A DNA stretch of 64,000 nt from Rhodothermales bacterium (lineage in GTDB: Bacteria > Bacteroidota > Rhodothermia > Rhodothermales > Bin80). Within the stretch, counting starts at the first letter, position 1; each line of letters starts with the position of its first letter. Of this stretch, positions 16,020 through 64,000 are shown piece after piece. The DNA lies in contig OZ244857.1 of NCBI GenBank assembly GCA_965220935.1, forward strand, positions 3,689,844-3,753,843, in the 5' to 3' direction. Position numbers and translations under genes: made by a program. The notes under the pieces were generated by a model that was not told the origin of the DNA, made no database searches, and saw nothing but the letters and a program-made list of their open reading frames with translations.

Positions 16020-16069
16020 TCAGCTACTTCATAAGCAGAATCTCTGAATCAATATTCATGTAAAGTCAT

Positions 16070-26145: not shown

Positions 26146-26148
26146 TGA

Positions 26149-45549: not shown

Positions 45550-45624
45550 TCTTGGCAGAATCGTTGCACTCATTTGATAGCCTCAAGGATCAGACTGCGT
45601 TTCAGTAGAAAAACCAACAATTTC

Positions 45625-47462: not shown

Positions 47463-49255
47463 ATGAACGCCTCTACGGTTGGGAAGCACCTCAATCCATT
47501 GGGACTCAAGGCTTGGTTCCACTCATGCTACTGTTTTTAGCGATAAGCCTTCAGGTTTCACTTGCGATTCTGACATTTATTTGGGGACCACCTGCCAAGG
47601 AGCCGTTAATTCCGTTGGAGGTTTCTAGAACTTTACTGTGGTGCATGATTGTGTCGTTAGCCCCGTGGCTATTTCGTTCATCAACGCGTGCACTGCTTGT
47701 TCCACTGATTACTGCACTGTTTGTAATCAGTCTGACACCATTACATAGCATCCATCATGTCTTTTTAGTGCTGGCCCGTTCGTTACATCATCCAGAGTTA
47801 CTCATTGTTGTGATTGGCGCACTTTCAGCGGGTGGATTGATAGGAGCGCTCCTTGTCAAGGCTATCATCATGCATTCGTCAACAAAGCTTTCACTCGCAA
47901 AAGGGTCAACGAGTTGGGGAACCGCAGAAGCCTTAAAGAAACCGACCAAGGGTCTTCTTCTTGGGAAAATGGATCAAGACTATCTTCGCTATGATGGCGA
48001 TGGGCATCTCATCACGATAGCAGCAACGCGAAGCGGGAAAGGAGTTGGAACAGTCATGCCGAATTTGCTAAACTATGAAGGTGGAATGCTAGTGACAGAC
48101 CCAAAAGGCGAAAACTACGCCGTCACCGCTGAATGGAGGCAAGATTATCTGGGGCAAGACATCGTGGCTTTAGATCCTTTTAGGCTGATGGAAGCACATG
48201 GTGGCCACATGGCATCCTTAAATCCGATGGACTTTGTCCATCTTGATGGCGATGATTATGTGGAAACGGCCATGATGTTAGCGGACATGATGATCGGGCG
48301 CGGGCATCAGGTTGAAGAGTCGCACTGGAGGATGGAGGCAAAAGGATTGCTGTTTAGCCTGATTCTTTATGTTGCCGCGGGCGATGAATTTCAAAATGAG
48401 AGAAACTTAATTACGGTTCGTCGTCTGCTAACACTGGATCGCGAGAAGTTGGATAAGACGCTGGAGATCATGAAAAACAGTGAGTTAGACCAAGTAAAAG
48501 AAGGGGCGAATCGGATCAATCAAAAGTCGGATAGAGAGCGTAGTGGAGTCTTTTCAACGGCTCAGAGCTATACGCATTTTTTGACGAGTCCGCGAATGCA
48601 AAAGGTCATGACATCCACTAGTTGTGATCTGGAGGATCTGCGTCGTGCAAAAATGACGGTGTATATCATTCTTCCCAGAGAATATCTGAGCGCATTTGCG
48701 CCGTGGCTCCGTTTGATGATCAGTTGTGGTTATTATGCATGTACCTATAATGCGGCTGATAAGCCACTGCCGCATCAGCGGGTCGTTTTTCTGTTAGATG
48801 AGTTTGCCAACCTCGGATATATGCAGAACATCAAGGAGGCTGTATCTTTGGGAGGAGGGTATGGTTTGTCAATGTGGTTAATTCTCCAGGATCTTGCACA
48901 ATTGAAGCGGGAGTATCAGAGGGAGTGGGAAAGTTTTTTGGCGAACTGCGATGTCATTCAAACATTTGCCGTGCAGGATCCATTTACAAGCGAGAAGATT
49001 ACTCGGCTTCTTGGAGAGATGTCTATTTGGCAACGTAGATTGAACAAGGGGGATGGCAGACACTTTGAGGGGATTCGTGCTGGTTATGAAGAAAGCGGTC
49101 GCCCGCTACTTAAACCAGACGAATTGCGTAGGCTCCATCCTGATCGTCAATTATTGTTCGTTCGTCCCTATCAACCTGTGGTTGCTAATAAGTTTCGTTA
49201 TTACAAGGATCCACTGACTGCTCCTCGTGCAAAGCCGAACCCATTCATTGGATAA
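47459..49255 (+). CDS. traG: TraG/VirD4 type IV coupling protein
   Basis: 598 aa with N-terminal TM helices, Walker A 'AATRSGKGVGTVMPNLL' and 'VFLLDEFANLG'. Confidence 0.9.
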   Translation: MNERLYGWEAPQSIGTQGLVPLMLLFLAISLQVSLAILTFIWGPPAKEPLIPLEVSRTLLWCMIVSLAPWLFRSSTRALLVPLITALFVISLTPLHSIHHVFLVLARSLHHPELLIVVIGALSAGGLIGALLVKAIIMHSSTKLSLAKGSTSWGTAEALKKPTKGLLLGKMDQDYLRYDGDGHLITIAATRSGKGVGTVMPNLLNYEGGMLVTDPKGENYAVTAEWRQDYLGQDIVALDPFRLMEAHGGHMASLNPMDFVHLDGDDYVETAMMLADMMIGRGHQVEESHWRMEAKGLLFSLILYVAAGDEFQNERNLITVRRLLTLDREKLDKTLEIMKNSELDQVKEGANRINQKSDRERSGVFSTAQSYTHFLTSPRMQKVMTSTSCDLEDLRRAKMTVYIILPREYLSAFAPWLRLMISCGYYACTYNAADKPLPHQRVVFLLDEFANLGYMQNIKEAVSLGGGYGLSMWLILQDLAQLKREYQREWESFLANCDVIQTFAVQDPFTSEKITRLLGEMSIWQRRLNKGDGRHFEGIRAGYEESGRPLLKPDELRRLHPDRQLLFVRPYQPVVANKFRYYKDPLTAPRAKPNPFIG

Positions 49256-49562: not shown

Positions 49563-50337
49563 ATGGATACATTCACCGAGTACAGATGACCTGCGGATTA
49601 CTTCCATGGGCGAAACGAGATCATAGTCCATTCGTTCATGAAATAGAGCATTACCGCGCCCGTGAAAAAGACACAATCTTTCCCATCAAAGGACCACCTG
49701 GTGCGGGAAAGGCAGCTTTATTGAGTGAACTATCAGAGCTTGCGAAAGCCATCGGGTATGCTGTGAAGGATAAGGTGAAGCCTGCCAACCTTTACGACCC
49801 ATCAAGCATGGCGTGTCATACGCTTCCCGCAAAGAGCGTGCATTTCAGTTTGGATTGAGGGTACTCCAGTGGGATCGTAAAAAGGAAATCGTTCATCACC
49901 ACCCGTTGTCAACGTCATCAAAAAAGCTGCGCATAGCAATGGACTACTCTTGGGCTTGACGAAGCACAACACATCACCGATCTAGTGTCTCCCGAACATA
50001 TTAAGGTTCGCGCCATGGACACATTGGCCGCCCTGTGATCTTACTCGCGGGTGGACTCGGAACAACAGAACTCGCGTTTGAATCTTTAGGTATCTCGCGA
50101 TTTGAGGACTCCTGCAGGGTGAGGCTTGACTCACTGGATCAGGAGGCCACATGCGCCATAGTTAAAGATCATCTTATCAACCGTTGTGGAATAGACTCCC
50201 CACCGACGACAGTCTGGATTGAGTCTCTTGCAGAGCACACGCATGGATGGACGCATCACATGATGTGCTACATTGATTCTCCAAAGGAGTATCTGGCCGT
50301 GATCAGCCGACGCAGTCTGATCTTGACAATCCATTGA
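49563..50337 (+). pseudogene. decayed paralogue of the AAA+/wHTH ATPases (opposite strand, multiple frameshifts)
   Basis: Fragments in three frames align to the 50575..51783 protein. 'PADYFHGRNEII' matches 'PAEYFHGRQEII'. 'TIFPIKGPPGAGKAALLSELSE' matches 'TTFLIQGAPGAGKTALLVKLSE'. 'ILLAGGLGTTELAFESLGISRF...HTHGWTHHMMCY' matches 'VLLAAGLGTTESAFNSLGISRF...ETHGWPQHIISY'. Confidence 0.75.
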
Positions 50338-50574
50338 GAGGGGGCGCGAGCGCCAAATATCTTATTATGGGGTCCGTGCACATGGCATATCCAAGAAGCA
50401 ACGAAGTATCAATACGGAATTATTCTCAACCTGCCTCGTGACGTGACTGTAGACAAAGAGGATGTCTTGCATGTCATTGAGAAACAGTACTCCTAAAGGA
50501 GGCTCATGAAGTTTTCACGCGGGCACGGCACAAGGAGTCCTTGACGAGAGAGCGAAATGATCATGCCTCAGTAT

Positions 50575-51783
50575 TTACCGCTCACGACTCCACTTTGAGG
50601 AGTCTTTTTCAGGCGACTCACCCTCTATCTTCGGCATTTCAATCTGTTCTCTGCCATACTCATCAATCAGCCATGTTTGCATTGAGGGAATGGGTACACC
50701 GTAGTATCCACCTTTGCGCTTATCAATGATTCCCTGCTCGAGTGCTTGTTTGAAGAGATTGTCTGCTACTTCAGGAGGATACTCCTCATTAAGAATGGCT
50801 ATAATTGATGTGCGTGTCGTAATTCCACCAATTGGAACATGGGCAAGAGATCTGGTGAGAGATTGACGTTGCTCCACATCAATATCGTGCGCGCGCGTTT
50901 CGTAATAGTTTCGCCTGAACTCATTGCCCTTTTCAAGTACAATCCGCAAGCCATCGTCGGTCATTTGACGGTGATTGGACTTAAGATAACGAACTGCGGG
51001 TTTAACATAGGAAATGATGTGTTGTGGCCATCCATGCGTCTCCTTGATAATCGCACCTATCCATGGATCAGGATTCCCCTTGGCAGCCCCTTCTTTTACG
51101 ATCCAGTCACGAATCGCCGCTCGCTCAGATTCCTTATCCAACCGCCCCAGATTTATTAAAGATTCTCCGACAAATCGTGATATTCCCAGCGAGTTAAAAG
51201 CAGACTCGGTCGTGCCCAACCCTGCCGCCAGTAGTACGACCGGTCTTCCCAATTTACCATTGTGAATTTCGTCAAGCACACCTGTAACTACCCCCCGAAC
51301 CTCATTAGGCACCACACCTTCTATCCCCAAATGCTGGGCTTCGTCTAAGACGAGCAGTAAAGGTTTTCTGCCAGACTTAAGAACTTTTTTGATGGTCTCG
51401 ACAGAATCTTTCACACTTATTTCAATGCTCCCACCCTCTGGTAGACCTGCGTTCACCTTTCCACTAAGCTTTTTTAGTAGATTCCTATCTGGAATGGATT
51501 CGCGGAGGGCCTTCACATCCCAAAGAGCGGCAGGACCAATTTCAGCAGTTTTCCATTTGTCGACCTGCGCCTTCTCAGAAAGCTTGACAAGTAACGCGGT
51601 CTTACCTGCGCCTGGTGCACCTTGTATCAGGAATGTGGTTCCCCTTTTTTTGCCGCGATAGCGTTTAAGGGCGCTGGTAAACGTGTCAATAATTTCTTGC
51701 CTTCCGTGAAAATATTCGGCTGGACCTCGATCCTCAATGAAATCAGAACTCATGATGTTTCTGGATTGATTAAATGCACGCAA
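50575..51783 (-). CDS. AAA+ (AAA_22/Orc-Cdc6-like) ATPase with C-terminal winged-helix module, copy A
   Basis: Walker A 'GAPGAGKTAL' and Walker B 'LLLVLDEAQHLG'. The C-terminal ~115 aa are only about half identical to copy B. The likely true start is ATG at 51753 ('MSSDFIEDRG'). Confidence 0.8.
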   Translation of the reverse strand: MRAFNQSRNIMSSDFIEDRGPAEYFHGRQEIIDTFTSALKRYRGKKRGTTFLIQGAPGAGKTALLVKLSEKAQVDKWKTAEIGPAALWDVKALRESIPDRNLLKKLSGKVNAGLPEGGSIEISVKDSVETIKKVLKSGRKPLLLVLDEAQHLGIEGVVPNEVRGVVTGVLDEIHNGKLGRPVVLLAAGLGTTESAFNSLGISRFVGESLINLGRLDKESERAAIRDWIVKEGAAKGNPDPWIGAIIKETHGWPQHIISYVKPAVRYLKSNHRQMTDDGLRIVLEKGNEFRRNYYETRAHDIDVEQRQSLTRSLAHVPIGGITTRTSIIAILNEEYPPEVADNLFKQALEQGIIDKRKGGYYGVPIPSMQTWLIDEYGREQIEMPKIEGESPEKDSSKWSRER

Positions 51784-51874
51784 ACGCTGGAAATTTCATC
51801 TCGGTTGATCATGTCGTAGCATTAACTGCTCACGACTCCACCACTTTGAGGAACCTTTTTCTTGGTTTGGAGAC

Positions 51875-53059
51875 TCACGCCTCGCCTTGTAGATCATTCT
51901 CTATCTCGGGCATGTCAGTCTGTTTTCTGCCATACGCCTCAATCAGCCATGTTTGCATGGATGGAATGGGAATACCGTAGTCCCCGTCGTCTCGTTCATC
52001 AATGATTCCTTTCTTAAGTGCTTTATTGAAAAGATTATCTGCGAATTGTTCATCGTATTCTTGCATTAAGACACCCATGATCTCCTTATAGGTTTTGGTC
52101 TCTCCTAATGGAATATCAACTATCGCCTTTGCTATAGATTGTCGTTGCTCCATAGGAATACCTCGGGCGCGTTGTCTATAATACTGAAGTCGGAACTCCG
52201 ACCCCTTTTCAAGTACAATCCGCAAGCCATCGTCGGTCATTTGACGGTGATTGGACTTAAGATAACGAACTGCGGGTTTAACATAGGAAATGATGTGTTG
52301 TGGCCATCCATGCGTCTCCTTGATAATCGCACCTATCCATGGATCAGGATTCCCCTTGGCAGCCCCTTCTTTTACGATCCAGTCACGAATCGCCGCTCGC
52401 TCAGATTCCTTATCCAACCGCCCCAGATTTATTAAAGATTCTCCGACAAATCGTGATATTCCCAGCGAGTTAAAAGCAGACTCGGTCGTGCCCAACCCTG
52501 CCGCCAGTAGTACGACCGGTCTTCCCAATTTACCATTGTGAATTTCGTCAAGCACACCTGTAACTACCCCCCGAACCTCATTAGGCACCACACCTTCTAT
52601 CCCCAAATGCTGGGCTTCGTCTAAGACGAGCAGTAAAGGTTTTCTGCCAGACTTAAGAACTTTTTTGATGGTCTCGACAGAATCTTTCACACTTATTTCA
52701 ATGCTCCCACCCTCTGGTAGACCTGCGTTCACCTTTCCACTAAGCTTTTTTAGTAGATTCCTATCTGGAATGGATTCGCGGAGGGCCTTCACATCCCAAA
52801 GAGCGGCAGGACCAATTTCAGCAGTTTTCCATTTGTCGACCTGCGCCTTCTCAGAAAGCTTGACAAGTAACGCGGTCTTACCTGCGCCTGGTGCACCTTG
52901 TATCAGGAATGTGGTTCCCCTTTTTTTGCCGCGATAGCGTTTAAGGGCGCTGGTAAACGTGTCAATAATTTCTTGCCTTCCGTGAAAATATTCGGCTGGA
53001 CCTCGATCCTCAATGAAATCAGAACTCATGATGTTTCTGGATTGATTAAATGCACGCAA
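51875..53059 (-). CDS. AAA+ ATPase with C-terminal winged-helix module, copy B
   Basis: The first ~285 aa are identical to copy A. The C-terminus differs ('SEFRLQYYRQRARGIPMEQRQSIAKAIVDIPLGETKTYKEIMGVLMQEY...'). Confidence 0.8.
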   Translation of the reverse strand: MRAFNQSRNIMSSDFIEDRGPAEYFHGRQEIIDTFTSALKRYRGKKRGTTFLIQGAPGAGKTALLVKLSEKAQVDKWKTAEIGPAALWDVKALRESIPDRNLLKKLSGKVNAGLPEGGSIEISVKDSVETIKKVLKSGRKPLLLVLDEAQHLGIEGVVPNEVRGVVTGVLDEIHNGKLGRPVVLLAAGLGTTESAFNSLGISRFVGESLINLGRLDKESERAAIRDWIVKEGAAKGNPDPWIGAIIKETHGWPQHIISYVKPAVRYLKSNHRQMTDDGLRIVLEKGSEFRLQYYRQRARGIPMEQRQSIAKAIVDIPLGETKTYKEIMGVLMQEYDEQFADNLFNKALKKGIIDERDDGDYGIPIPSMQTWLIEAYGRKQTDMPEIENDLQGEA

Positions 53060-53150
53060 ACGCTGGAAATTTCATCTCGGTTGATCATGTCGTAGCATTA
53101 ACTGCTCACGACTCCACCACTTTGAGGAACCTTTTTCTTGGTTTGGAGAC

Positions 53151-53345
53151 TCACGCCTCGCCTTGTAGATCATTCTCTATCTCGGGCATGTCAGTCTGTT
53201 TTCTGCCATACGCCTCAATCAGCCATGTTTGCATGGATGGAATGGGAATACCGTCGTCCCGTTCATCAATGATTCCTTTCTTAAGTACTTTATTGAAAAG
53301 ATTATCTGCGAATTGTTCATCGTATTAAGACACCCATGATATCCT
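53151..53345 (-). pseudogene. 3' remnant of a third ATPase copy (B-type C-terminus, with 9-nt and 8-nt deletions)
   Basis: Aligns to 51875-52075. Differences are 'ccgtagtccccgtcgtctcgttc' versus 'ccgtcgtcccgttc' and 'cgtattcttgcattaagac' versus 'cgtattaagac'. Similarity ends at about 53345. Confidence 0.75.
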
Positions 53346-53510
53346 TATAGGTTTTGGTCGCCCATGAGTCACGATTTTTTGATCTACAACTATTACAGCT
53401 TGATCTGTAATAAGTTCAAACTTATTTTACTGTTAAAAATCCGAAAAAGAAGTCTGATGCCCCCATTCCAATGCACCAGCCGTCAGAAAAACTAAAATGA
53501 TATAACTTTA

Positions 53511-53522
53511 GGGAATTATGTA
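53511..53522 (-). promoter_or_regulatory. near-copy of the motif (TACATAATTCCC) facing the ATPase array
   Basis: The + strand reads gggaattatgta. One mismatch to the 12-mer. Confidence 0.3.
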
Positions 53523-53541
53523 GGAAAGTGACCCACTTGTG

Positions 53542-53715
53542 TTACCGCTTCTTAATAGACTGCGGAGGCGTATTCAGCAGGATCTTGGCGAACTCATCTG
53601 GATCCATGGGGATAGATCCGTTCACTGCCTTCCAGTCCTTCGCTGGACGACCTACGCGCTTCGTAGGCTTCTGAGGAGAAGAAGGCTTCTGATTACTGGA
53701 AGGTTTTTGAGTCAT
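53542..53715 (-). CDS. small basic hypothetical protein (57 aa)
   Basis: Hand translation gives MTQKPSSNQKPSSPQKPTKRVGRPAKDWKAVNGSIPMDPDEFAKILLNTPPQSIKKR, with an AT-hook-like 'RVGRPAK'. Below the ORF-track length cut-off. Confidence 0.3.
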   Translation of the reverse strand: MTQKPSSNQKPSSPQKPTKRVGRPAKDWKAVNGSIPMDPDEFAKILLNTPPQSIKKR

Positions 53716-53925
53716 AGTTGTTGGTCTTTTTTCTTTAGTACTTGGACTTAATCTCCACGTACATCCTGGTGTAGAAAGGAAGGTTCCCTTTCGGGGGTTG
53801 GTATGTATTAGTTTCTGGTTACATTTTGTTATAGATTTAGACCAATCGTCATGGAGAAAGAGTCTTTTAGCAATGGCGACGGTATATCAATCTGGTGTCC
53901 GCATGCTAGGCAAAAGCCGTAATGC

Positions 53926-55022
53926 TCAATACGTCGGAGCTGCCAGGATCTTGAAACTCGGGCTCGCGATAATCGCTACCGAAAAGTATAGACTTGGGCT
54001 CTCCATCGTTGCTTTGGACTCTTTCTCCATGACGATTATCGGTTGTTTATGCTGTTGCAACGCCTCCCAGAGAAAGCCAACCAGTTCACGAACCACCGCG
54101 ACTTTCGGAGGTTTGCGTTGTAACGTTTGTATAAACGTGTTTGTGCTTTCTGGCGATGACTTTAGCACTGCAGTGTTTTTGCCGCTCTTGAAGTGCAACA
54201 CTGATCGCGTAGATGTATTTCCATGCTGCGCTCACCAAGACCTTTCGTGCGTGTGTGTTGCCAGTTTTGGTGATTGAACCAGTGCGGATGGTGTTTCCTG
54301 TTGAGATGGAACTAATCCAAGATGCGCCATCAGTGCCGTCCAAACCGCCGAAAGTCTCCAATCTCACAAACCAACTGCATGGCCGAGATCAGTCCAATGC
54401 CTCGGAAGCCCTGCAGAATCTGAACTGCTTGTTGAAACTTCTCGGACTCGGATGCTGTTGCGTCCCTGATGATAATCAATATCATTCAGGTGTCCGCAAA
54501 CTCGACGCTCTAACTCAATCTGATTGATCCAAGTCTTAAACTTTTTTGTCCAGTAGCTTCCAGTTGTATAACAGTGCCCGTGTGCATGCAAAAAATGAAT
54601 CACGCGCATTTTGGATTGGTGAAGACTTTTTATCAGTGCCTCACGACTGCGCAAAAGTCCTCGCACGGCTCGGAGCTGGACGAAACATTCAGTCAAAAGT
54701 CCAGATCCAAAATACTTGGACAAATTTCTGGCATCGCGCTGATCGGTTTTGATTCGATCGCCTGAGCGCTTGGGAATCGAGCAATGATGGCGCAATCCAC
54801 GCCGTGTTCGGTCAATGTGTCATAGAGCACAGTACCCGAAAAGGATGCCTCATAACAACAGCGAAAATGCCCATACTTTGAACGCGTAGATTCCACAAAC
54901 CGAGCGAGACTCTTCATTTGCTCATCACAGTAACGCTTCTCAGTCGCATCGTAAACACACGCCGAGATTGTGTCACGATGAACGTCTAATCCAACGTAAT
55001 AGCGAACAGATGTAGATGACAT
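53926..55022 (-). pseudogene. IS110-family (DEDD) transposase, at least 3 frameshifts
   Basis: N-terminus 'YYVGLDVHRDTISACVYD' (54693..55022). Middle 'IPKRSGDRIKTDQRDARNLSKYF' (54364..54795). C-terminal 'SGNTIRTGSITKTGNTHARKVLVSAAWKY' (54086..54367). Tail in 53926..54201. Each part is in a different frame. Confidence 0.8.
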
Positions 55023-55242
55023 AATAAAATGAAAGTTTGGTTACCTCAAAAAATAACACTTCTGAGAGAACCTTCCTTTCTATTATATCTTATACTCATT
55101 GAGATAGTTGGCTTCTCTTGCACTCTGTGATAGCCAGCAGTGTATGACACGGATCCCATTTTCTCGCTGGCAGCACCTACCACCTGGCCACCTTTTGTAG
55201 GCCCTATCTTGACCATCCACTTTCCATTCGCACAAAATACAG

Positions 55243-55408
55243 TGGTATCCACCGTCACAAGAAAAGTTTCGAATTTTTCATGAAAAATCTTCAACGCCTG
55301 AAATAACCGCAAAATGAACAAGCAAACTACCGGTAAGCACTTGTAAAATATAGCCCCTGCGATCCTATGCTACCCCAGAATTAGAGTTTATTGTCGGGCA
55401 CTATTTAT
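55243..55408. repeat. 165-bp repeat, right copy, in the 5' non-coding arm upstream of the IS110 transposase
   Basis: Matches the reverse complement of 2168-2332. Starts 220 nt upstream of the transposase ATG (55022). Confidence 0.85.
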
Positions 55409-55584
55409 GATTTTGGTTACATCCAGACCGAATTGGCGGGTTCGCCCATGCCTGGACGAACCATCCATCAAGACATGTGTTTATTAGGGTCCCCTGTATA
55501 ATGTTAAGTCGCCGAGAGGTGAGATTCCCCTCGGCGACTTATCTATGTTTCAAGAGTCTGGTATTTCTTGATCCGTTTAATGGA

Positions 55585-56190
55585 TCACCTGACATTCATA
55601 AAATGGCCGTAGATAGAGGCCTCGAGTTATCTTCAAGACAAACGATCCCATTTGATAGAGATACGGCCCAGAGGTAAGTCCAAGATCGGTCGGTTCTTGT
55701 TCATGATGCCACCATGCGCTGAGATGAACTTCTTGGGGCACCGCCCAATGACATCAAGAACCTCAGTTTGCACCTACGCTGGCCACGGAAAATCACACAC
55801 CAGATACATGGACATGAAAATGGATTCGGGTGATTCAGATAAACCCGAAACGCCTCATGAGCCCGCTTCATCTTCGGCCTGAACAGTGATATCACCTCTA
55901 TGGTAAATATGAAACTGCCGCCCATGCCATTGGCATCAATTGCCTAATAGGTCAACGAACCTGATGTCCACCTCAGTGGGAGTACCGCTAATGGTTCTAG
56001 TTGGAAGATCAAATAGAAATCCAAGTGGAAGGCCAAGCAGTGTCAAGGTATAGACAATCGGAACTGCGCCTGTGACCTCTGGAAGCACAAGTGTAGCAAT
56101 GGGTTGAGTGGGCATTTGATAAAGAAGGTCCACACCAATAGGCCAGACAATAATTGGCATAAACCCAAGAACAGATCGTCAGCGATAACA
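55585..56190 (-). pseudogene. 3' remnant of another adhesin gene (cadherin-like unit + frameshifted T9SS C-terminal domain)
   Basis: 'PIATLVLPEVTGAVPIVYTLTLLGLPLGFLFDLPTRTISGTPTEV', 'FTIEVIS', 'YLNHPNPF', then frame changes, ending '...ASIYGHFMNVR-stop' (stop at 55585-55587). Confidence 0.75.
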
Positions 56191-56346
56191 AAATCTGTGG
56201 TCTAAGAGGGGGGATTCAGATCGCATGATTCGTCTTTGGGGTTCAAAATCTCAAACCCCAACCCAATCGTGTTTCCTTGTCAAAATCGTCATCTATGGAC
56301 TTTTGATCACACAGCGATTAGAAGTAAAAATCATATAATAAACAAA

Positions 56347-56354: not shown

Positions 56355-56397
56355 TGTGAAATACTTTTACTTTGGAGGAGGTGTAGTTGTTGTGATC

Positions 56398-56856
56398 ATG
56401 GCATTCCTGCTTTGGAAACGCCCAACGGGGCCCGTATCGGGGCAGCTGTATCGTAGAGCAGGCCATGACTCTACCATTGTTGCACGGGCGGTGGTAAGTG
56501 ATAGTGCTTCAAGTCCGCTTGCAAGGCAGCTGGTGGTGGATCTTTTAACCAGAGATCTCTACATCAGAATCGAAAAGACAGGCCATTGCGGAGCCATCTC
56601 GGATTACTATGACAAAGTCAATCTCCGATTGCAAGCGACCAAAGATCTTCTGGAACAAGCATTCCTTGCTGCGCGCCCCGTTCAATTATATAGCGATGAG
56701 CAGACTCAATGTTTCTCCTACTCAATTACCTATCACATCCCTCTTCCTGAGCCGATGAACTGGCGGAGACATGTGATCACTAAAGTGCCGTTACAACTCA
56801 CCATCATCCACCCAATCGCAGACTTTAAATACTTCACACATCAGCAAGATGATTAA
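56398..56856 (+). CDS. hypothetical protein (first gene of operon)
   Basis: Internal Met of ORF 56236..56856, preceded by GGAGG. 8-nt overlap (ATGATTAA) with the next gene. No family recognised. Confidence 0.45.
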   Translation: MAFLLWKRPTGPVSGQLYRRAGHDSTIVARAVVSDSASSPLARQLVVDLLTRDLYIRIEKTGHCGAISDYYDKVNLRLQATKDLLEQAFLAARPVQLYSDEQTQCFSYSITYHIPLPEPMNWRRHVITKVPLQLTIIHPIADFKYFTHQQDD

Positions 56857-57517
56857 GCTACTCGCAACCATGATGCTCGGAGGCCTATGTCTTCAAACTG
56901 TAGACGCACAGCAGTTTGACCAGCTCACACGCCCCGTCGCCATTCTTTCGGATAGTACCCAGGTTTGGGAAATGCTAGATGCGCTGCTTATTCCAGCACT
57001 TGGCCCGGTCAGTCAAGCCGATGTGGTAGATGTCACAGGGAATGGGTTCGGCCCCAATGATCTCGTTGTGCTTTATCCAAGCATGGAGACCTATGAAATT
57101 GGTAGCGATGTGCCGCAAGCTCTATTAGATGCAATGAAATCATGGGAAATCTCTGCCGATTACCGACTAGATGCACTACGAGCAGAAAGAACCCGGATTG
57201 CCTCGGATGCGCATGCCAATCAGGACGCGCGGGCCGCCTTGACATCCGATGTGCTCGGTGTGGTATCCCGATACTACCAAGGAGATCATTTTGATATGCG
57301 GATGTCGCAGGATTTTGAAGGTGTACGCTTAGAAATCTGGAATTATGATCCCAGCGCATTACAGTATAGAGGGTCAATCCAATCTGCCAGTCCAGATACA
57401 CTCTGGCAGGCCTTCCGATTTTCAAGCCCCGCGGTAGTGATGGCCTTTAAGGATGTCTCTGACTGCGTTGAAACCTACTCTGAAAATGGACTTGTTCAAA
57501 CACGCCCATGTCAATGA
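56849..57517 (+). CDS. secreted hypothetical protein
   Basis: Signal peptide 'MIKLLATMMLGGLCLQTVDAQ'. 222 aa. No family recognised. Confidence 0.55.
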   Translation: MIKLLATMMLGGLCLQTVDAQQFDQLTRPVAILSDSTQVWEMLDALLIPALGPVSQADVVDVTGNGFGPNDLVVLYPSMETYEIGSDVPQALLDAMKSWEISADYRLDALRAERTRIASDAHANQDARAALTSDVLGVVSRYYQGDHFDMRMSQDFEGVRLEIWNYDPSALQYRGSIQSASPDTLWQAFRFSSPAVVMAFKDVSDCVETYSENGLVQTRPCQ

Positions 57518-57630
57518 ACCCACCAATTAGGTGCAATCGGATATCCTTTCATAGATGCAAAATTGACCATTTTCAAAGATGTATGACGGGTGATTTCATT
57601 CACATTCATCATAACCGAATCAACACACTA

Positions 57631-58176
57631 ATGAGATATACACTACTGTTCATTCTTTTTCATTTTTGGTCTGTATTTCCCACAGTCGGGCAATCCGTAT
57701 CGGTCAGTGCGTCAATTACGCTGACGAGTCCAGCGCCTACATGCTCATTTACCCGAGATTCCCACCTCTCTTTCGGGAGCGTGGAAAAACCGAGTAGTGG
57801 AACAGGGTCTGTGGCTGTCAACGCGCAGACGGGTGCGCGAACGATCAGTGGAGTGTCGGGAGGCGGAGGGACGACGGTAGGTCAGCTACGCTTGACGGGA
57901 TCCAATGTAGCCAACTACTCGGTATCAAGGTCATTTCCTTCAGATCTGACACAATCCACTGATGCGTTGACTTTCAGTGGTACATGGTCTCAATCTACGA
58001 GCCCCACATCGGGTTATTCCTCCATCAGTGGCACTTCGTACAGTGGTACAGCGAGTGGTGCAGGCACTTCATTTTCTCGATATTTTCGATTTGGTGGAAC
58101 TGTCAGTGGCATAGATCTCTCCGACCAAAATGGAACGTATACAGGGACGATCACCGCCACAGGGACATGCAGTTAA
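57631..58176 (+). CDS. SCPU/DUF4402-like secreted fibre subunit 1
   Basis: Signal peptide 'MRYTLLFILFHFWSVFPTVGQS', 'TCSFTRDSHLSFGSV' and C-terminal 'FRFGGTVSGIDLSDQNGTYTGTITATGTCS'. This is the pattern of spore-coat-U/Csu-type pilins. Confidence 0.6.
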   Translation: MRYTLLFILFHFWSVFPTVGQSVSVSASITLTSPAPTCSFTRDSHLSFGSVEKPSSGTGSVAVNAQTGARTISGVSGGGGTTVGQLRLTGSNVANYSVSRSFPSDLTQSTDALTFSGTWSQSTSPTSGYSSISGTSYSGTASGAGTSFSRYFRFGGTVSGIDLSDQNGTYTGTITATGTCS

Positions 58177-58689
58177 ATGAGGTTTAGTCTCATCGTCATT
58201 GTTTGTTGTAATGCTGTCCATGCACAGACCAGTAGCACAATGCAGATTCAACTAGAAGTCCTTCCAAGGGCTCTATCGGTGAGCGTGAGTAGCGCTCATC
58301 TAGATTTTGCAGAACAGCGTGCAGATGCTGGATCTGTAACGCTTGATCCTACAAAAGGACTAACCAATCAAAAAGCTGCAGGGGCTCATGCAGTTGGAGA
58401 AGTGATTGTGGAAGGGCCGGCCAGATCCAAATTTCTGGTCAGCCTTGACCATACAGCGTCTCTCAAACAAATAGGTGGAGATTACGAAGTTGACTATACC
58501 CCGACTTGGGCTCAGACGCGTGGATGTGGGCTTAGAGATTTTGTTGAGTCTACAAGCATTCAAGGAGCGATGGGAACTTTGGGAGAGGATGGGTGCGCGA
58601 CGCTTCGGTTTGGGGGGACGGTACATCTTGTAGGAACCCCCCAAGGACGCTATGCTGGACAGCTTGCCGTTCGCATTATGGCTTTATGA
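58177..58689 (+). CDS. SCPU/DUF4402-like secreted fibre subunit 2
   Basis: Signal peptide, 'HLDFAEQRADAGSVTL', 'GEVIVEGPARSKFLVSL' and C-terminal 'LRFGGTVHLVGTPQGRYAGQLAVRIMAL'. Confidence 0.6.
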   Translation: MRFSLIVIVCCNAVHAQTSSTMQIQLEVLPRALSVSVSSAHLDFAEQRADAGSVTLDPTKGLTNQKAAGAHAVGEVIVEGPARSKFLVSLDHTASLKQIGGDYEVDYTPTWAQTRGCGLRDFVESTSIQGAMGTLGEDGCATLRFGGTVHLVGTPQGRYAGQLAVRIMAL

Positions 58690-59465
58690 CAAGATACAGG
58701 ATTATTTTTCTGATTGCCATTGCATGGGTGGCCAAAAAGGCTGATGCGCAAGCCTCATTGAGTGTCACGCCCGCATATGTGGTGACCACCGATGAGATCC
58801 CTTTTGGGTCATTTGTTCTGTCCAATCAAGGGACAGAGCCTGTTGAAATAACAATTAGTGCACACTATGGTGTGATTGCATCAACCGATTCTACGACTGA
58901 AGTTGTCCTTGGCCAAGCAGGACAACTTGGGGATCTATCACCATTTTTAACCTTTTTCCCTCACCGATGTATCCTCTCAGCACAGAGTGAGCAAACCGTC
59001 CGCTACCGAATTCGGCCACCACCTGAGGGAGGATATATCACGCTCATGCATTTTGCAATGCGTGAGCGTGGGGCAACAGTAGACGGTCAGATTCCCGAAG
59101 TTGCCAGTGGGCTTAGCATCGTGTATAACTTGGTCGCTCCAGTGACTTATCTTCAAGGGCGGGGCATTCCTGTTCTTACAGCTCACCCCTTAAACCTCCG
59201 CGTGCAGGAACTCCTTCTATTGTTAGAAAATCACAGCCGTTGGCCCTTTTTTGGTGGGATACGCGTGATTCAAGGTGAGCAGCAACTTGGAAGAGCAGAA
59301 GCAGCGGTCTATACCAAACGTCTCATTCGAATTCCAGTATCCAAAATCCTAAGTGATCAGGCCGTTCGTTTAGAGTTTGACACGGATTATACAGGACTTA
59401 AACGGTTGATCCGAAGTCAATTGGGGATACCAGATCCGGTCTATCTGACCGAGTCTAATGATTAA
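58686..59465 (+). CDS. PapD-like periplasmic pilus chaperone (putative)
   Basis: Signal peptide 'MTRYRIIFLIAIAWVAKKADAQ', then 'SLSVTPAYVV...FVLSNQGTEPVEITISA...FFPHRCILSAQSEQTVRYRI' (chaperone N-domain pattern). ATGA overlap upstream. Confidence 0.6.
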   Translation: MTRYRIIFLIAIAWVAKKADAQASLSVTPAYVVTTDEIPFGSFVLSNQGTEPVEITISAHYGVIASTDSTTEVVLGQAGQLGDLSPFLTFFPHRCILSAQSEQTVRYRIRPPPEGGYITLMHFAMRERGATVDGQIPEVASGLSIVYNLVAPVTYLQGRGIPVLTAHPLNLRVQELLLLLENHSRWPFFGGIRVIQGEQQLGRAEAAVYTKRLIRIPVSKILSDQAVRLEFDTDYTGLKRLIRSQLGIPDPVYLTESND

Positions 59466-61695
59466 GGGGGCTGGATTGATGATTGCATTGCTTTTGCATG
59501 TACGAGCGGGATATGCCCAAGTTTTAATGGAGGTGCCTTTGTTGTTGGAACTTCCACGTAATGAACATCTCGTTCGTGCATGGTATGATGGAGAGACGTT
59601 CTTTGTGGATGGTCACGAGTTGTTTCGACACCTTGAATTTTCGGTCATCACCAATGGATCTAATCTCAAGGCACTTGATGCACATCGTCAGTATGCATTT
59701 GAGTGTGCAGGAATATTAGATGTCTCAAAGTGTTCCATTGCTCTGAACGATGTATTGGATCACCTCAATCATGTATTGGATTTTGATGAAACACGCCTGC
59801 AGTTAAGGGCATCATCTGTTGCAACAACATTTAATCTCCAATCAACGCGTAAGAAGCACTGGGTAGAGGTGCCGGGCCCTCACCTGTTCCCTCAGGCGCG
59901 TCAATTATGGGGTGGTGTAATGGCGGGATGGCAACTTCGTCGCGATAGGTTTGGTGTTCGTCCCTCGGTTCAGATGACGACCAGTGCACTCTATGGTACG
60001 ATTAAAGCTGAGATAGGGAGCGGTCCATCATGGCAGTACACCTACGACCGCCCACATCATAGATGGCTGACTCAGATGGGAGTTAGAGGATTTAAGGGTA
60101 GGATACCTCAATTGTTAGCCACAAATCGTCCACTGATTCATCCACGCTTACAGCATATCAATGTGATTCGTGGGCGATCAACTCCACACGCCCTCATACA
60201 GGCTCTAATCAGTGGAGAGGTCGTTGATCAAGTTCAGGCCGACGGCCATGGTCATTATCAGCTGAGCACCCCACTATGGTACGGGACAACGAAGATGCAG
60301 ATCCGCACCCAATCACTGGGAGGAAGAAAAGCGTCCTCTCACTATTCATATCTACTTACGCCTGCCTCCTTGCTTCCATCTGGAAAGATCTATTATCATC
60401 TGGTAGGGCGTCCCTCCGCATATGCGCTCAAGATTCAGTATGGCCTCCATCAGAGACTCACCCTTGATACATCGTTACAGCAGAATCAATCCCACAGGCG
60501 GATTTCGGTGGGGGCGACGATCAGGGGCGCTAAATTTTTGATTCTCACCACAAATGTGTTAGTCTCTGATCGCATTTGGGAAGGATCACTTCATCTGTGG
60601 CGCTCCAGAATGCAGATGACAGCATCTGTCGCCGCTCAACCCAATCAATTCTGGAATGCCAACCTGAGCGCTTCGGCGCATTTAGGCGACGTCACCATGT
60701 TTGTGAGGAGCCAGCAGTCTACCTTCAACGGGATCTATCAGCAGTTTTCCATCAATCCTGAACTCATGGTTCATCACTCCAGCGGACTGCTCATCCATAC
60801 CAGCTATGAAATTGACCGAACCCAAGGCATATCCAATGGAATGACATCACACTGGAAGGCATCGGCTGGCTGGTCATTTTCACGCACTCGGGTATCAGCG
60901 TTTGCTGATCATCGGCTTAGGCAAAAGGTTTACGGACTTGAGGGAATTCTTTTACGCCGACATCAATCTCTGGGCTTCTCAATTGGATGGGACGCGAGGA
61001 ATCAAGCCGTAGTGGGCCGCCTTCGTATACAGGCATCATCCGCATTTGGCAGTTTATTTTCACGTATCCAAAGCGATGCTACCGGTATCTCTGACTCGCA
61101 ATATCTTCAGGGGAGTCTACATCTGGGTCAGGAACTATCGTTATCGCCATCGTCTTATCAGGCCAGCGCCGCAGAGCTGAGAATTTTTGAAGACCTCAAC
61201 GGGAACGCAATCTTTGATCCAAGCGAGCGAATTCTATCTCACATAGATGCCCAATTATATGAGGGTGCATGGGTGCGGTTAAGAACGGGTGCACTGTATG
61301 TTGCCCATCTTGAACCCTACCAAACATATCAGGTCCGAATTATGGAGGCCTCCATCCGAAATCCATCTCTGTACCCATCTACAGGGTTGGAATTTAGTTT
61401 TACCGCGGACCCAGGCAAACGAAAAATCATTGATGTTCCGATGCAACAGATGATGACAGTCACTGGCCAGATTACAAGTTTGGATCGCGCGCCTCTGCGT
61501 TTGATGGCACGCTTTAATGAGCATACTGATACCGAAGTCTACAGTGACGGTGGATTTAGCGTCCAGATCCGCCCTGGTCAGTACAGTGTCTCAATTATTG
61601 ATGTATTGAGCCAAGATGTCCTTGCAGAAAAAATGATTCAGGTCCAAACGATGCCACTTGAAGTCACGATTGATCTTCATGAGGACGCAAAATGA
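59458..61695 (+). CDS. usher-like outer-membrane protein (putative)
   Basis: 745 aa with a signal peptide. The N-terminus 'VPLLLELPRNEHLVRAWYDGETFFVDGHELFRHLEF' resembles usher N-domains. Long beta-rich middle and a C-terminal CarboxypepD_reg-like segment. Confidence 0.5.
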   Translation: MIKGAGLMIALLLHVRAGYAQVLMEVPLLLELPRNEHLVRAWYDGETFFVDGHELFRHLEFSVITNGSNLKALDAHRQYAFECAGILDVSKCSIALNDVLDHLNHVLDFDETRLQLRASSVATTFNLQSTRKKHWVEVPGPHLFPQARQLWGGVMAGWQLRRDRFGVRPSVQMTTSALYGTIKAEIGSGPSWQYTYDRPHHRWLTQMGVRGFKGRIPQLLATNRPLIHPRLQHINVIRGRSTPHALIQALISGEVVDQVQADGHGHYQLSTPLWYGTTKMQIRTQSLGGRKASSHYSYLLTPASLLPSGKIYYHLVGRPSAYALKIQYGLHQRLTLDTSLQQNQSHRRISVGATIRGAKFLILTTNVLVSDRIWEGSLHLWRSRMQMTASVAAQPNQFWNANLSASAHLGDVTMFVRSQQSTFNGIYQQFSINPELMVHHSSGLLIHTSYEIDRTQGISNGMTSHWKASAGWSFSRTRVSAFADHRLRQKVYGLEGILLRRHQSLGFSIGWDARNQAVVGRLRIQASSAFGSLFSRIQSDATGISDSQYLQGSLHLGQELSLSPSSYQASAAELRIFEDLNGNAIFDPSERILSHIDAQLYEGAWVRLRTGALYVAHLEPYQTYQVRIMEASIRNPSLYPSTGLEFSFTADPGKRKIIDVPMQQMMTVTGQITSLDRAPLRLMARFNEHTDTEVYSDGGFSVQIRPGQYSVSIIDVLSQDVLAEKMIQVQTMPLEVTIDLHEDAK

Positions 61696-62552
61696 ATCAG
61701 CTCAAGTGGTGTTTCTTAATGATTTTATGCGGATCTGCAGGTGACTCTGAGGCGCAGCTCAGAGTTCATGGTACACTCTCATTGAATGGGATGCCTGCGC
61801 GGATTGAATCAGTATTTACGCCTGAGATGGGGGCTTGGTATGAGGCGATTGTTCAGGGGCATGAACTCAGGATGGGATCAAAGGCCATTAAGTGGGCGCC
61901 GAGCATTTCGTGTCAAGGTCAACATCCAACCAATGGTGCGCAGGTGTGTCGGGTACAGGCAGGTCGGAATCTCATTTGGTACATTTACGGGGCCACCACT
62001 GAGCAGGCAGATCCAGGGATCTACCATGGTCATGCGCGCCTGACTGTGCGGGGCGCAGGTCACCTCTATACGACATCTATCCCGGTCAGATTGAGCGTGA
62101 GGGCTATAGAGCCTCACTGTGAAATCAGTCAATCGGGAGCATTAGACTTTGGCGAGGCGCAGGCAAACACAACTGGATTGGTTTCGCTTCATTCGGTGAC
62201 GGGGCAACGCTCTGCACATGGGTATGCACTTCAAAAAACAACATCTACACGGCATCGTTTCGCGCGTTTGACTCTGAGTACCAGCGCTACGTCAGTGATG
62301 GTATCCATTGACGCACCTTCGGTGTTACGATCTGAGGGGAGTATCGTAGGATTTATGAGTCAACTCTCTTATAAATCTGCCTTATCGCCTACGTATCGCC
62401 CATTGATTGAGGGTTCTGGAAGCCGCCGAATTCAGTCAGATGGGCCAAGGCTCTTCTTTCGTCTTGGGGGGATCGTTCAGACCTATGTAACGAGTTTAGA
62501 AGCTGAGTATCAAGGAAACATTTCATTCACAATTTTATGCGAACAATCATGA
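61692..62552 (+). CDS. two-domain tip/adhesin-like subunit (CsuE-like position)
   Basis: 286 aa with a signal peptide. The second half has 'LDFGEAQANTTGLVSL' and 'FFRLGGIVQTYVTSLEAEYQGNISFTI', the same pattern as the subunits. ATGA overlap with the usher gene. Confidence 0.45.
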   Translation: MNQLKWCFLMILCGSAGDSEAQLRVHGTLSLNGMPARIESVFTPEMGAWYEAIVQGHELRMGSKAIKWAPSISCQGQHPTNGAQVCRVQAGRNLIWYIYGATTEQADPGIYHGHARLTVRGAGHLYTTSIPVRLSVRAIEPHCEISQSGALDFGEAQANTTGLVSLHSVTGQRSAHGYALQKTTSTRHRFARLTLSTSATSVMVSIDAPSVLRSEGSIVGFMSQLSYKSALSPTYRPLIEGSGSRRIQSDGPRLFFRLGGIVQTYVTSLEAEYQGNISFTILCEQS

Positions 62553-63193
62553 TAGAAACATTGCAAGACACGACGACATTTTTTTCACCAGAACAATCTT
62601 TTTCAATACTTGAGCTTTTGGGGCAGGCAGGAGGGTTTCAGTGGCCGATTTTAGCGGTCTTCATTGCTGGGATCGTAATCCTGATGTTATGTGTGGTCCG
62701 ACTCACGGATGATTACTTAGCGGCGAGGCCACTGATGCGCCTTCATTTAGAGTCTATGTCTTACACTGATCTGATAAAGGCTCAGCGTGAGATCTCCGAC
62801 AGTCTCTATACGCGGCTATTATCAGGTATGCTACAGCTGCACAACAGTCCAGAGGCAATGGGGCGAGAGCTCAGTGACATTGCCGCATCTGCCAGAGCCA
62901 CATATCAGCGGACCCAGCGGATTATCACCTATTGTTCTAGCACTGCTGGGGGGCTTGGACTTTTGGGAACATTAGTTGGAATTTATGCTCTTTTCTCAAC
63001 GGGTACGCGGGATGCCCAGATGATTTTTGCAGGAATTGCGATTGCTGTGGTATCTACGTTATTAGGGATTGTCACCAGCATTCTTTTAGAATTCTTTGAA
63101 GCCGTCATGCATAGCTATATGAGTCGCTACATTGAATCTGCTCAAACTTGGGCACAAAAGGTTCGTAGTCAAATTATGTCGTGGGACACATGA
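62537..63193 (+). CDS. exbB: MotA/TolQ/ExbB-family proton channel
   Basis: Three TM segments, 'AGGLGLLGTLVGIYALF' and 'AGIAIAVVSTLLGIVTSILLEFF'. The alternative start 62549 gives an ATGA overlap with the preceding gene. Confidence 0.8.
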   Translation: MRTIMIETLQDTTTFFSPEQSFSILELLGQAGGFQWPILAVFIAGIVILMLCVVRLTDDYLAARPLMRLHLESMSYTDLIKAQREISDSLYTRLLSGMLQLHNSPEAMGRELSDIAASARATYQRTQRIITYCSSTAGGLGLLGTLVGIYALFSTGTRDAQMIFAGIAIAVVSTLLGIVTSILLEFFEAVMHSYMSRYIESAQTWAQKVRSQIMSWDT

Positions 63194-63552
63194 GAGGAGC
63201 GATTATCTTACGTCTGGTTGACATCACATTATTGCTGCTCTTGAGTCTGATGGCAACGGCCAGTTTTATCACCTCAACGGCTGAGCTACCGATCAGCACG
63301 GCACTCACCGACAGAGGAGCCCTAATGCAACCCATGCAGATTGAATTGACATCTGACGGAAGGATTCTCGCACAGGATCAAGTGGAGTTGACACTGAGTG
63401 ATCTTGAGATGTTGGTCAAGACATGGCCTATGGAGATTGAGTTGGTGGCTGATGCCGATGCCTCCGCTGGTCAACTTTTAGGCATTCATGCGATAGCGCG
63501 TCAACACGATCGGCTTGGGGCCTTTCGGGTACAGCGCAGAGGATCACCATGA
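63190..63552 (+). CDS. exbD: ExbD/TolR-family protein 1
   Basis: 'LRLVDITLLLLLSLM' carries the conserved TM Asp. Periplasmic domain 'IELVADADASAGQLLGI'. ATGA overlap with exbB. Confidence 0.8.
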   Translation: MRGAIILRLVDITLLLLLSLMATASFITSTAELPISTALTDRGALMQPMQIELTSDGRILAQDQVELTLSDLEMLVKTWPMEIELVADADASAGQLLGIHAIARQHDRLGAFRVQRRGSP

Positions 63553-63926
63553 ACCGTGATCAAGTCCACATGCTCCGATTCATTGACTTAGGGTTGCTAC
63601 TGCTATTGGCATTCTTGTCGGTTGCAGAGTTAAATCCTACGCTGCAGGTCCCACTGCCAAATGAATCTCAGACAGAGCAGCAGACTGTAGCGGCTCGGAT
63701 CACATTTGACAGGCACTGGTCCACCACCATTAGCCGATTAGATCAAAAAGAGATGATATGCGAAACCAGAGACATAGCGTCGCTTCGCGATTGTTTGCAG
63801 AGCCAATCGTTCATGCAATTTTTAGTTGCACCTGATGCGGAGGCTACAGTGCAGCAGATCGTGACCGTTTTGGATCTCTGTAATGACGCACATCATCGCT
63901 GTGAACTAGAGCCCATCCAGCCATGA
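63549..63926 (+). CDS. exbD: ExbD/TolR-family protein 2
   Basis: 'LRFIDLGLLLLLAFL' has the TM Asp, and 'FLVAPDAEATVQQIVTVLD' follows. ATGA overlaps on both sides. Confidence 0.7.
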   Translation: MNRDQVHMLRFIDLGLLLLLAFLSVAELNPTLQVPLPNESQTEQQTVAARITFDRHWSTTISRLDQKEMICETRDIASLRDCLQSQSFMQFLVAPDAEATVQQIVTVLDLCNDAHHRCELEPIQP

Positions 63927-64000
63927 CGACAAAGACTCGGGAGCGTCTCTTTGCAGGTGGGATGACGGTTGGACTGCTTTTATTGTTTTGGCTCCTTGCA
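63923..64000 (+). CDS. TM-anchored protein, 5' part only (TonB-like position)
   Basis: Hand translation gives MTTKTRERLFAGGMTVGLLLLFWLLA, then runs off the window. Position after exbB-exbD-exbD suggests TonB. Confidence 0.35.
   Translation, partial: MTTKTRERLFAGGMTVGLLLLFWLLA

Follow-up and report, generated by a model that had tools for sequence, protein, structure and literature searches.

The region described here closes a stretch of DNA of 64,000 nucleotides (nt; "the window") from an uncultured marine Rhodothermales bacterium. It encodes the proteins of a chaperone-usher-like surface fibre followed directly by the subunits of an ExbB/ExbD-type proton motor. On the + strand of window 56356-64000, ten complete open reading frames (ORFs) are packed tightly together with an eleventh that is cut by the window end, as seen in the ORF listing and by direct reading of the junctions. 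Loci fetched from related genomes are designated by L-numbers (L001, L003 and so on), and the window is counted among the 29 loci called type 1 below. The genes (lengths in amino acids, aa) are as follows.

56356..56856, + strand: gene 1, of unknown family; hydrophobic helix at the N-terminus and a ~130-aa domain in which two Cys are invariant (ORF, orthologue alignment)
56849..57517, + strand: gene 2, 222-aa secreted protein of unknown family with a signal peptide (ORF, orthologue alignment)
57631..58176, + strand: gene 3, 181-aa DUF4402-type pilin-like subunit with a signal peptide (orthologue matches to PF14352)
58177..58689, + strand: gene 4, 170-aa second pilin-like subunit, paralogue of gene 3 (hhalign)
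58686..59465, + strand: gene 5, 259-aa periplasmic two-domain chaperone with the PapD/FimC/CsuC fold (AlphaFold2 and Foldseek)
59458..61695, + strand: gene 6, 745-aa outer-membrane protein with the usher fold (AlphaFold2 and Foldseek)
61692..62552, + strand: gene 7, 286-aa two-domain tip-like subunit (DUF4402 match below the cut-off, hhalign)
62549..63193, + strand: gene 8, 214-aa proton-channel subunit of the ExbB/TolQ type (PF01618)
63190..63552, + strand: gene 9, 120-aa ExbD/TolR paralogue 1, membrane Asp kept (PF02472)
63549..63926, + strand: gene 10, 125-aa ExbD/TolR paralogue 2, membrane Asp kept (PF02472)
63923..64000, + strand: gene 11, first 26 codons of a membrane-anchored protein (full length 311 aa, completed from L003)

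Neighbouring genes overlap by 8 nt (ATGATTAA) at junctions 56849 and 59458 and by 4 nt (ATGA) at junctions 58686, 61692, 62549, 63190, 63549 and 63923. An earlier note on this DNA had described a consecutive run of overlapping genes with one gap. Its eight overlaps are present and the gap at 57518-57630 (113 nt) is the sole true intergenic gap of the operon, but genes 3 and 4 abut without overlap (TAA-ATG, 58176/58177). Gene 1 most likely starts at GTG 56356 (166 aa) rather than at ATG 56398, because its orthologues carry an N-terminal hydrophobic helix that would be lost with the downstream codon. The 113-nt gap is the site at which most relatives have a third DUF4402 paralogue (~160 aa); this extra gene is lost in the window, L003, L018, L006, L013 and L015. 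Since the junction pattern recurs across 29 related loci, the tight packing is conserved and is not a chance of one genome. The 98%-identical genome of L003 reveals that the operon extends beyond the window end and has 12 genes, with a gene 11 of 311 aa and a gene 12 for a 462-aa tetratricopeptide repeat (TPR) lipoprotein, the latter being absent from the earlier note.

Among genes 1-7, Pfam and NCBIfam scans give only a sub-threshold DUF4402 match in the C-terminal half of gene 7, while the motor genes are recognised. The usher, the chaperone, gene 1 and gene 2 have zero Pfam or NCBIfam matches, and across the chaperone, gene 4 and gene 11 families weak DUF4402 matches of gene 4 are all that appears. 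An AlphaFold2 model of the 745-aa protein of gene 6 was built from 23 family members (predicted local distance difference test score, pLDDT, 62.8 overall and ~80 in the barrel). It comprises, in order, an N-terminal domain, six strands, a six-strand insert (234-298) at the plug position, ~18 strands and two C-terminal beta domains. An N-terminal domain, a plug within a barrel of ~24 strands and C-terminal domains, as in ushers, are thus all found, in a model of moderate confidence. In the Foldseek comparison with the PDB the best 18 matches are all FimD/PapC (E 1.4e-18 to 3.5e-8), which bears out the usher-like nature proposed earlier, and the next fold class, Occ porins and LptD, begins at E 5e-5. 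Assignment of this protein to the TonB-dependent transporters was considered and rejected: the best such match has E 3.4e-4, and the usher matches are better by >14 orders of magnitude.

The mature N-terminus of the usher (QVLMEVPLL) is invariant in the family; judged by its sequence, it could be either an analogue of the TonB box or the usual tail that binds chaperone-subunit complexes. The Pfam Usher profile (PF00577) matches neither the window usher nor 10 remote relatives obtained by a profile search of 1.84 billion proteins. The usher profile search of PDB sequences was empty, and a tblastn search with the usher found nothing in 72,556 plasmids.

The 259-aa product of gene 5 gave a model with pLDDT 84.8, and its best 50 Foldseek matches in the PDB are all chaperones of chaperone-usher systems (FimC, CfaA, CsuC, Caf1M or PapD, E from 3.5e-10), in agreement with its earlier description as PapD-like. 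At the sequence level, Pfam PapD_N and PapD_C have no match at E<=1 in the window chaperone or in any of 32 family members (0/32), the PDB sequence search is without a match, and the profile search of the chaperone family reached 67 clusters and found no bridge to PapD.

Gene 3 has an N-terminal alternating hydrophobic stretch, a Cys pair and the C-terminal motif FRFGGTVSG...GTYTG. Its window copy has no match to DUF4402 (PF14352, gathering cut-off 25.2 bits), but 17 of 21 orthologues match at E<=0.01 (best 5.9e-10), and orthologues in L001 reach 33.7 and 28.4 bits. Gene 4 and the gene 3 family are homologous (hhalign probability 98.8%, E 8.7e-17); weak DUF4402 matches are found in 11/20 of its orthologues and none in the window copy. 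The DUF4402 matches and the alternating hydrophobic N-terminal stretches are indirect signs of subunits that may have an incomplete Ig fold, completed by donor-strand complementation and exchange. The pilin-like character suggested earlier for both small proteins is therefore sustained, and so is the two-domain, tip-like organisation of gene 7. Residues 145-280 of gene 7 score 20.7 bits against DUF4402, below the 25.2 cut-off, and its C-terminal half is homologous to the gene 3 family (hhalign probability 97.7%, E 1.8e-12), so that the layout is that of a tip adhesin: a pilin domain of the DUF4402 type at the C-terminus, preceded by a domain of unknown family. The tip gene is dispensable, being absent from ~40% of related loci. 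SCPU (PF05229) was found neither at E<=1 in window genes 3, 4 and 7 or 20 gene 4 orthologues, nor at E<=0.01 among 21 gene 3 orthologues, and the pilin profile search of PDB sequences returned no relatives. Genes 3-7 are chaperone-usher-like by fold and gene order and are not sequence-level members of the archaic Csu/SCPU group. Of the archaic Csu/sigma type assumed in the earlier note, the order subunit-chaperone-usher-tip remains, and the SCPU, PapD and Usher Pfam matches are missing.

Gene 8 matches MotA_ExbB (PF01618) at 49.7 bits (cut-off 22.9), and genes 9 and 10 match ExbD (PF02472) at 27.5 and 27.7 bits (cut-off 25.4). The membrane Asp of both ExbD paralogues aligns with D25 of E. coli ExbD and D23 of TolR, so the earlier identification of one ExbB and two ExbD with this residue holds. 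Alignment with E. coli ExbB and TolQ shows that ExbB retains two channel Thr. Near residue 165 it has Ile (GIAIAV) throughout the motor clade, whereas E. coli ExbB and TolQ have Glu (E176 and E173, GIAEAL). The NCBIfam equivalogs for ExbB, ExbD, TolQ and TolR give best scores of 19-25 bits against cut-offs of 123-221.

Gene 11 encodes an anchor, a variable linker of ~150 aa rich in Pro, Ser and Thr, and an almost invariant C-terminal domain of ~120 aa. As far as the sequence allows a judgement, it resembles TonB and TolA in architecture and gene position only, and the TonB-like label attached earlier to the ORF at the window edge can be kept in that sense. No relation to TonB_C or TolA was found: TonB_C, TonB_2 and TolA of Pfam have no match in 13/13 gene 11 orthologues at E<=10, hhalign of the family against E. 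coli TonB and TolA gives a probability <1%, and the profile search of PDB sequences returned nothing. Gene 12 has a lipoprotein signal (LLLISAC) and TPR repeats, with generic TPR matches only in the profile search of PDB sequences. Neither the operons listed nor the Pfam scans contain TolB- or Pal-like genes.

Gene 2, whose mature protein begins with the invariant QxFDQLTRP and has two C-terminal Cys, is part of the core common to type-1 loci and a paralogous system described below. Gene 1 is present in 27/29 type-1 loci (absent from L028 and L029) and undetected in the paralogous system. Profile searches of PDB sequences gave no relatives of genes 1 and 2.

At 90% identity the usher family comprises just 31 clusters, and all loci fetched from genome records belong to Rhodothermales, Rhodothermaceae or Bacteroidota metagenome-assembled genomes. 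The type-1 order is gene 1, gene 2, (extra pilin), gene 3, gene 4, chaperone, usher, [tip], exbB, exbD, exbD, gene 11, gene 12; it is kept in full in 19 species genomes and in other assemblies. The wider chaperone family of 67 clusters, with identity down to 39%, led to L023, L024, L027, L028 and L029, in which usher identity is merely 29-32%. The order from the chaperone to gene 12 is intact in L023 and L027-L029, and L024 ends shortly past the usher gene. The exbB-exbD-exbD genes adjoin the usher or tip gene in 29/29 type-1 loci and never form an independent unit; the link between exbBD and the fibre genes claimed in the earlier note thus extends to the whole set, and in the paralogous system the two are interleaved. 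A metagenome scan seeded with gene 11 returned two loci only, each with a complete operon, and the rarity of the gene 11 family matches that of the chaperone-usher family.

Within type-1 loci, neighbouring genes of the motor block, and likewise usher and tip, nearly always overlap by 4 nt. The overlap of the tip stop codon with the exbB start, which the earlier note had emphasised, is present in the window and confined to its lineage; elsewhere a gap of 2-36 nt is found, reaching 1,237 nt in L027 through insertion of a 363-aa gene with a CarboxypepD_reg domain (L027:14036-15127). Where the tip gene is absent, the usher-to-exbB gap is 64-319 nt. The "translational fusion" of tip and exbB is lineage-specific, and the adjacency is universal. 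Scans for sigma-70 promoters and terminators gave results no different from chance and carry no information for this phylum. Two lesions apart, the operon is intact throughout: the usher gene of L019 is split by a ~1.5-kb insertion (L019:7766-11500), and the gene 3 orthologue of L002 is frameshifted (L002:8177-8697).

Searched against 1.84 billion representatives, the usher profile has 904 hits at E<=1e-3, of which 47 reach E<=1e-30. The usher-like superfamily accordingly comprises ~900 representative clusters; the window type belongs to a sub-clade of ~46, every sampled member of which has motor genes. The nearest outgroup ushers, those of L034 and L035, are found in a paralogous "type 2" system (L034:2435-13248; L035:5503-13031) with homologues in the order gene 2, ExbD2, gene 11, ExbD1, gene 12, usher, ExbB. 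The type 2 usher gene is thus located between the gene 12 and exbB homologues in both loci, and the gene 2 homologues are recognised with E 1e-23 and 1e-27, respectively. L034 and the type-1 locus L016 share one chromosome of 3,584,636 bp, so that one genome has two separate sets. In L034 the type 2 genes are preceded by one for a 1114-aa surface-type protein with immunoglobulin (Ig) repeats, at the C-terminus of which a pilin-like domain (699-838) is fused to a chaperone-like domain (885-1082). A 4-nt overlap joins an usher-like gene of L036 to the exbB homologue that follows. The more remote usher-like clusters L033 and L037 consist of DUF4402 pilins, a chaperone-like gene and an usher; they have no motor and lack exbB, exbD, gene 11, gene 12 and gene 2.

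Seven proteins (usher, ExbB, ExbD1, ExbD2, gene 11, gene 12 and gene 2) therefore travel together in two gene orders. Because they keep company in both orders, one genome has two sets and simpler relatives are without the motor, this co-travelling appears to be the signature of components of one machine. The view of the motor as a chance neighbour of the usher was rejected in the light of synteny and of the interleaved order of type 2.

A second context, which the earlier note did not mention, is type IV secretion. The window holds a complete P-type type IV secretion/conjugation set in three blocks, separated by unrelated insertions.

12221-12538: VirB2-like
12538-12858: VirB3-like
12859-17634: VirB4, VirB5-like, VirB6 and VirB8
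34010-34954, - strand: VirB11-like ATPase
44217-49252: relaxase, VirB9, VirB10 and VirD4

The VirD4 protein shares 33-41% identity with coupling proteins from conjugative plasmids of Alphaproteobacteria. Between the type IV genes and gene 1 lie ~7 kb with two AAA_16/STAND ATPase genes and an ORF-poor stretch. Type IV genes are found inside the fetched flanks of 12/29 type-1 loci, the window included, in several arrangements. In L023, L024 and L029, the most divergent type-1 loci, the operon is immediately preceded, on its own strand, by VirB9-VirB10-VirD4; the virB4-B8 genes of L014 diverge from gene 1, and in L028 a VirB11-like gene comes after gene 12. By a rough estimate, this co-location in 12/29 loci is far above the 1-3% expected in genomes of 3-4 Mb. 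In the type 2 loci L034 and L035 no type IV genes are found within 10 kb. A role of the fibre as replacement of the type IV pilin was considered and rejected, given the VirB2-like gene at 12221-12538.

Several known systems share parts with the operon. Chaperone-usher pili (Fim/Pap, Csu/CupE) have the same two-domain chaperone of the PapD fold, an usher of the same build (N-terminal domain, plug inserted after strand 6 in a barrel of ~24 strands, two C-terminal domains), small secreted subunits with an N-terminal strand-like extension, a two-domain tip, and the order subunits, chaperone, usher, tip (cf. csuA/B-A-B-C-D-E). The operon differs from them in that Pfam PapD_N/C, Usher and SCPU have no match, the subunits are of the DUF4402 type, and the fibre genes are tied to those for a proton motor, for a TonB-like protein and a TPR lipoprotein, and for two unknown proteins. 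Pili of the archaic chaperone-usher class secrete themselves by means of energy stored in folding and quaternary structure, and it is still debated where the forces that drive chaperone-usher secretion come from (PMC9452303). The plain DUF4402 clusters of L033 and L037 have homologous usher-like, chaperone-like and DUF4402 genes in a cluster, whereas the motor, gene 11, gene 12 and gene 2 are absent there.

The Ton system is similar in having the ExbB domain, ExbD with the membrane Asp (here in two copies), a next gene whose product has an N-terminal anchor and, behind a Pro-rich linker, a conserved domain at the C-terminus, and a plugged outer-membrane barrel as partner. In contrast to it, the C-terminal domain here is not TonB_C, the NCBIfam equivalog cut-offs are missed widely, the partner has the usher fold and is not a 22-strand TonB-dependent transporter, and the presumed direction is export. 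Unlike Tol-Pal, the operons encode no TolB or Pal. In the Agl-Glt/Agl-Nfs machines of Myxococcus, a TolQ-like and two TolR-like proteins are coupled via TonB-like periplasmic and TPR proteins to outer-membrane barrels handling an adhesin or polymer (PMC3169522, PMC3858216, PMC11761067). The layout of one TolQ-like and two TolR-like proteins is shared, the likeness being one of part list, with no sequence relation seen; those machines are without chaperone-usher parts, and the operon has no cytoplasmic or MreB-linked parts. In type IX secretion of the Bacteroidota-related lineage, a 5:2-type proton motor (GldLM/PorLM) energises export and adhesin handling (PMC9389320, PMC8986121). There the motor is GldL/GldM and the translocon SprA, and pilin, chaperone and usher parts are lacking. 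The partners of 5:2 motors that have been reviewed are the flagellum, Ton, Tol, Agl-Glt and GldLM, with ushers and pili unmentioned (PMC9389320). Full-text literature searches gave no paper on DUF4402, none linking chaperone-usher systems mechanistically to ExbB, TonB or proton-motive force, and nothing relevant on type IV secretion of Rhodothermales from sponges.

Taken together, the region probably represents the first eleven genes of a 12-gene operon for a highly divergent chaperone-usher fibre partnered by a dedicated proton motor. The folds and domains of the products, the conserved membrane Asp and Thr residues, the invariable co-occurrence of fibre and motor genes, and the interleaving of usher and motor genes in type 2 carry this reading; the motor itself would gate or drive export. 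The gene linkage to a proton motor suggests that assembly of this fibre may not be independent of inner-membrane energy. In the proposed mechanism, an ExbB pentamer around the ExbD1/ExbD2 pair could use the flow of protons to do work on gene 11, whose conserved C-terminal domain would contact the usher, directly or via periplasmic gene 2 or the TPR lipoprotein of gene 12. This domain could gate the usher plug, or help to pull or hand over the chaperone-subunit (DUF4402) complexes. Export of the fibre or adhesin would thereby depend on proton-motive force, and the energised usher would be analogous to the plugged TonB-dependent barrels opened by TonB. The invariant N-termini of the usher (QVLMEVPLL) and gene 2 (QxFDQLTRP) are candidate handles for strand exchange. 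The fibre may serve cell-cell or host attachment tied to the type IV system, because the operon neighbours P-type conjugative type IV genes in many relatives.

A more far-reaching proposal is conceivable, with a likelihood somewhat short of even: the usher pore, ExbB, ExbD1/2 and genes 11, 12 and 2 could constitute an undescribed outer-membrane exporter powered by proton-motive force, effectively a new type of secretion system. In it a TonB-like transducer would open or drive a plugged usher; the exported cargo would be DUF4402 fibres in type 1 and, in type 2, a giant Ig-repeat adhesin with fused pilin-like and chaperone-like domains.

Several observations weigh against a fibre with a dedicated motor. 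Known chaperone-usher systems, archaic ones included, require no external energy (PMC9452303). ExbB has no Glu at the position of E. coli E176, and a sequence relation of the C-terminal domain of gene 11 to TonB or TolA is undetectable. The contact between gene 11 and the usher is a presumed one. The usher model is moderately confident (pLDDT 62.8), with the plug and the first C-terminal domain <50. A separate promoter for the motor block may exist, since in most genomes the tip>exbB junction is not an overlap and is mostly a short gap (64-319 nt to the usher where there is no tip). The evidence comes from uncultured genomes throughout.

The same genes could alternatively be an accessory module of the P-type type IV system, in which the fibre stabilises mating pairs or host contact and the motor serves the type IV apparatus or the island. 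This explanation is unlikely, yet it draws on the full VirB2-B11/VirD4/relaxase set over window 12221-49252, on the VirB9-VirB10-VirD4 genes directly upstream in L023, L024 and L029, and on the presence of type IV genes in the flanks of 12/29 loci, which was roughly estimated as far above chance. Against this, fibre and motor genes remain side by side, whereas type IV genes change arrangement or, in 17 loci, are missing from the flanks; the pairing of motor and usher in L034 and L035 occurs with no type IV genes within 10 kb; and the type IV system owns a VirB2-like pilin. The accessory module partly overlaps the motor-partnered fibre preferred here, since the shared context is compatible with a motor acting on the usher. 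It is also conceivable, and quite improbable, that the motor does not serve export and powers import or retraction via an usher-like pore, or moves or tensions a surface adhesin in the manner of Agl-Glt/Nfs and GldLM. The part list matches Agl-Glt in kind (PMC3169522, PMC11761067, PMC9389320), with an ExbB/TolQ-like and two ExbD/TolR-like proteins, an anchored protein spanning the periplasm, a TPR lipoprotein, an outer-membrane barrel and a surface adhesin, and the type 2 core is paired with the 1114-aa Ig-repeat surface-type protein. Pfam and NCBIfam scans, however, show no sequence relation to Glt or Gld components, and an usher-fold barrel with a chaperone and pilin-like subunits points to export, a direction which is itself presumed.

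A last alternative treats exbB-exbD-exbD-gene 11-gene 12 as an ordinary TonB/Tol-like housekeeping unit that just happens to follow an unrelated fibre operon. Operons of the exbB-exbD-exbD-tonB type are indeed common in Flavobacteriia, Xanthomonas and Acinetobacter (PMC4446302), and the tip>exbB boundary is "soft" in most genomes. This alternative is hardly credible in view of the linkage in 29/29 loci, down to ~30% usher identity, the interleaved order in type 2, the two sets in one genome, and ExbB and ExbD scores far below the NCBIfam cut-offs. It is essentially refuted by synteny, by interleaving, by the rarity of the gene 11 family, which equals that of the usher family, and by the lack of a TonB_C/TolA signal in gene 11 and of TolB and Pal in the operons.

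Chaperone-usher secretion is the textbook case of outer-membrane transport without ATP or proton-motive force. A motor-partnered chaperone-usher system, combining chaperone-usher-like parts with a Ton-like motor, is not found in the literature searched. If the reading is true, usher pores can be externally energised or gated, the 5:2 motors gain a sixth partner class after flagella, Ton, Tol, Agl-Glt and GldLM, and a concrete set of seven core proteins is at hand. A large unannotated DUF4402/chaperone/usher-like superfamily is also revealed, the ~900 representative usher-like clusters of which are missed as chaperone-usher by current domain libraries.

The remainder of the window has several further features. 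Two near-identical tandem genes for AAA_16/STAND-type ATPases lie on the - strand (50575-51783 and 51875-53059), and related fragments on the + strand (49586-50337); the interval 49586-53059 forms part of the insertion that separates the VirD4 block from the operon. The adjoining 53000-56200 is ORF-poor, with just short broken ORFs, among them those at 54364-55022 (- strand), which are presumably fragments of an IS110-type transposase. L003 has a DDE_Tnp_ISAZ013 transposase at the place equivalent to this ORF-poor stretch.

Three very large ORFs are present: 38033-43528 for a 1831-aa protein with fibronectin-III repeats, 18014-21544 for a 1176-aa protein with He_PIG, Calx-beta and SprB repeats, and 2954-10588 (- strand) for 2544 aa. 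The fibronectin-III protein matches Por_Secre_tail, the type IX secretion system's sorting tail, at 20.5 bits, below the cut-off of 27; this match is the sole sign of the type IX system on which the host had been said to rely. Genes for type I restriction-modification subunits S and M, a C5 cytosine methylase and a HATPase_c_3 protein (24928-27708, - strand, and 30978-33700) lie between the type IV blocks and look like a defence-type insertion. Rfam matches to group II intron domains at 22084-22212 and 28678-29207 (D1-D4 93.8 and 44.5 bits, domain V/VI 53.5 bits) indicate at least one full intron and one remnant in the window.

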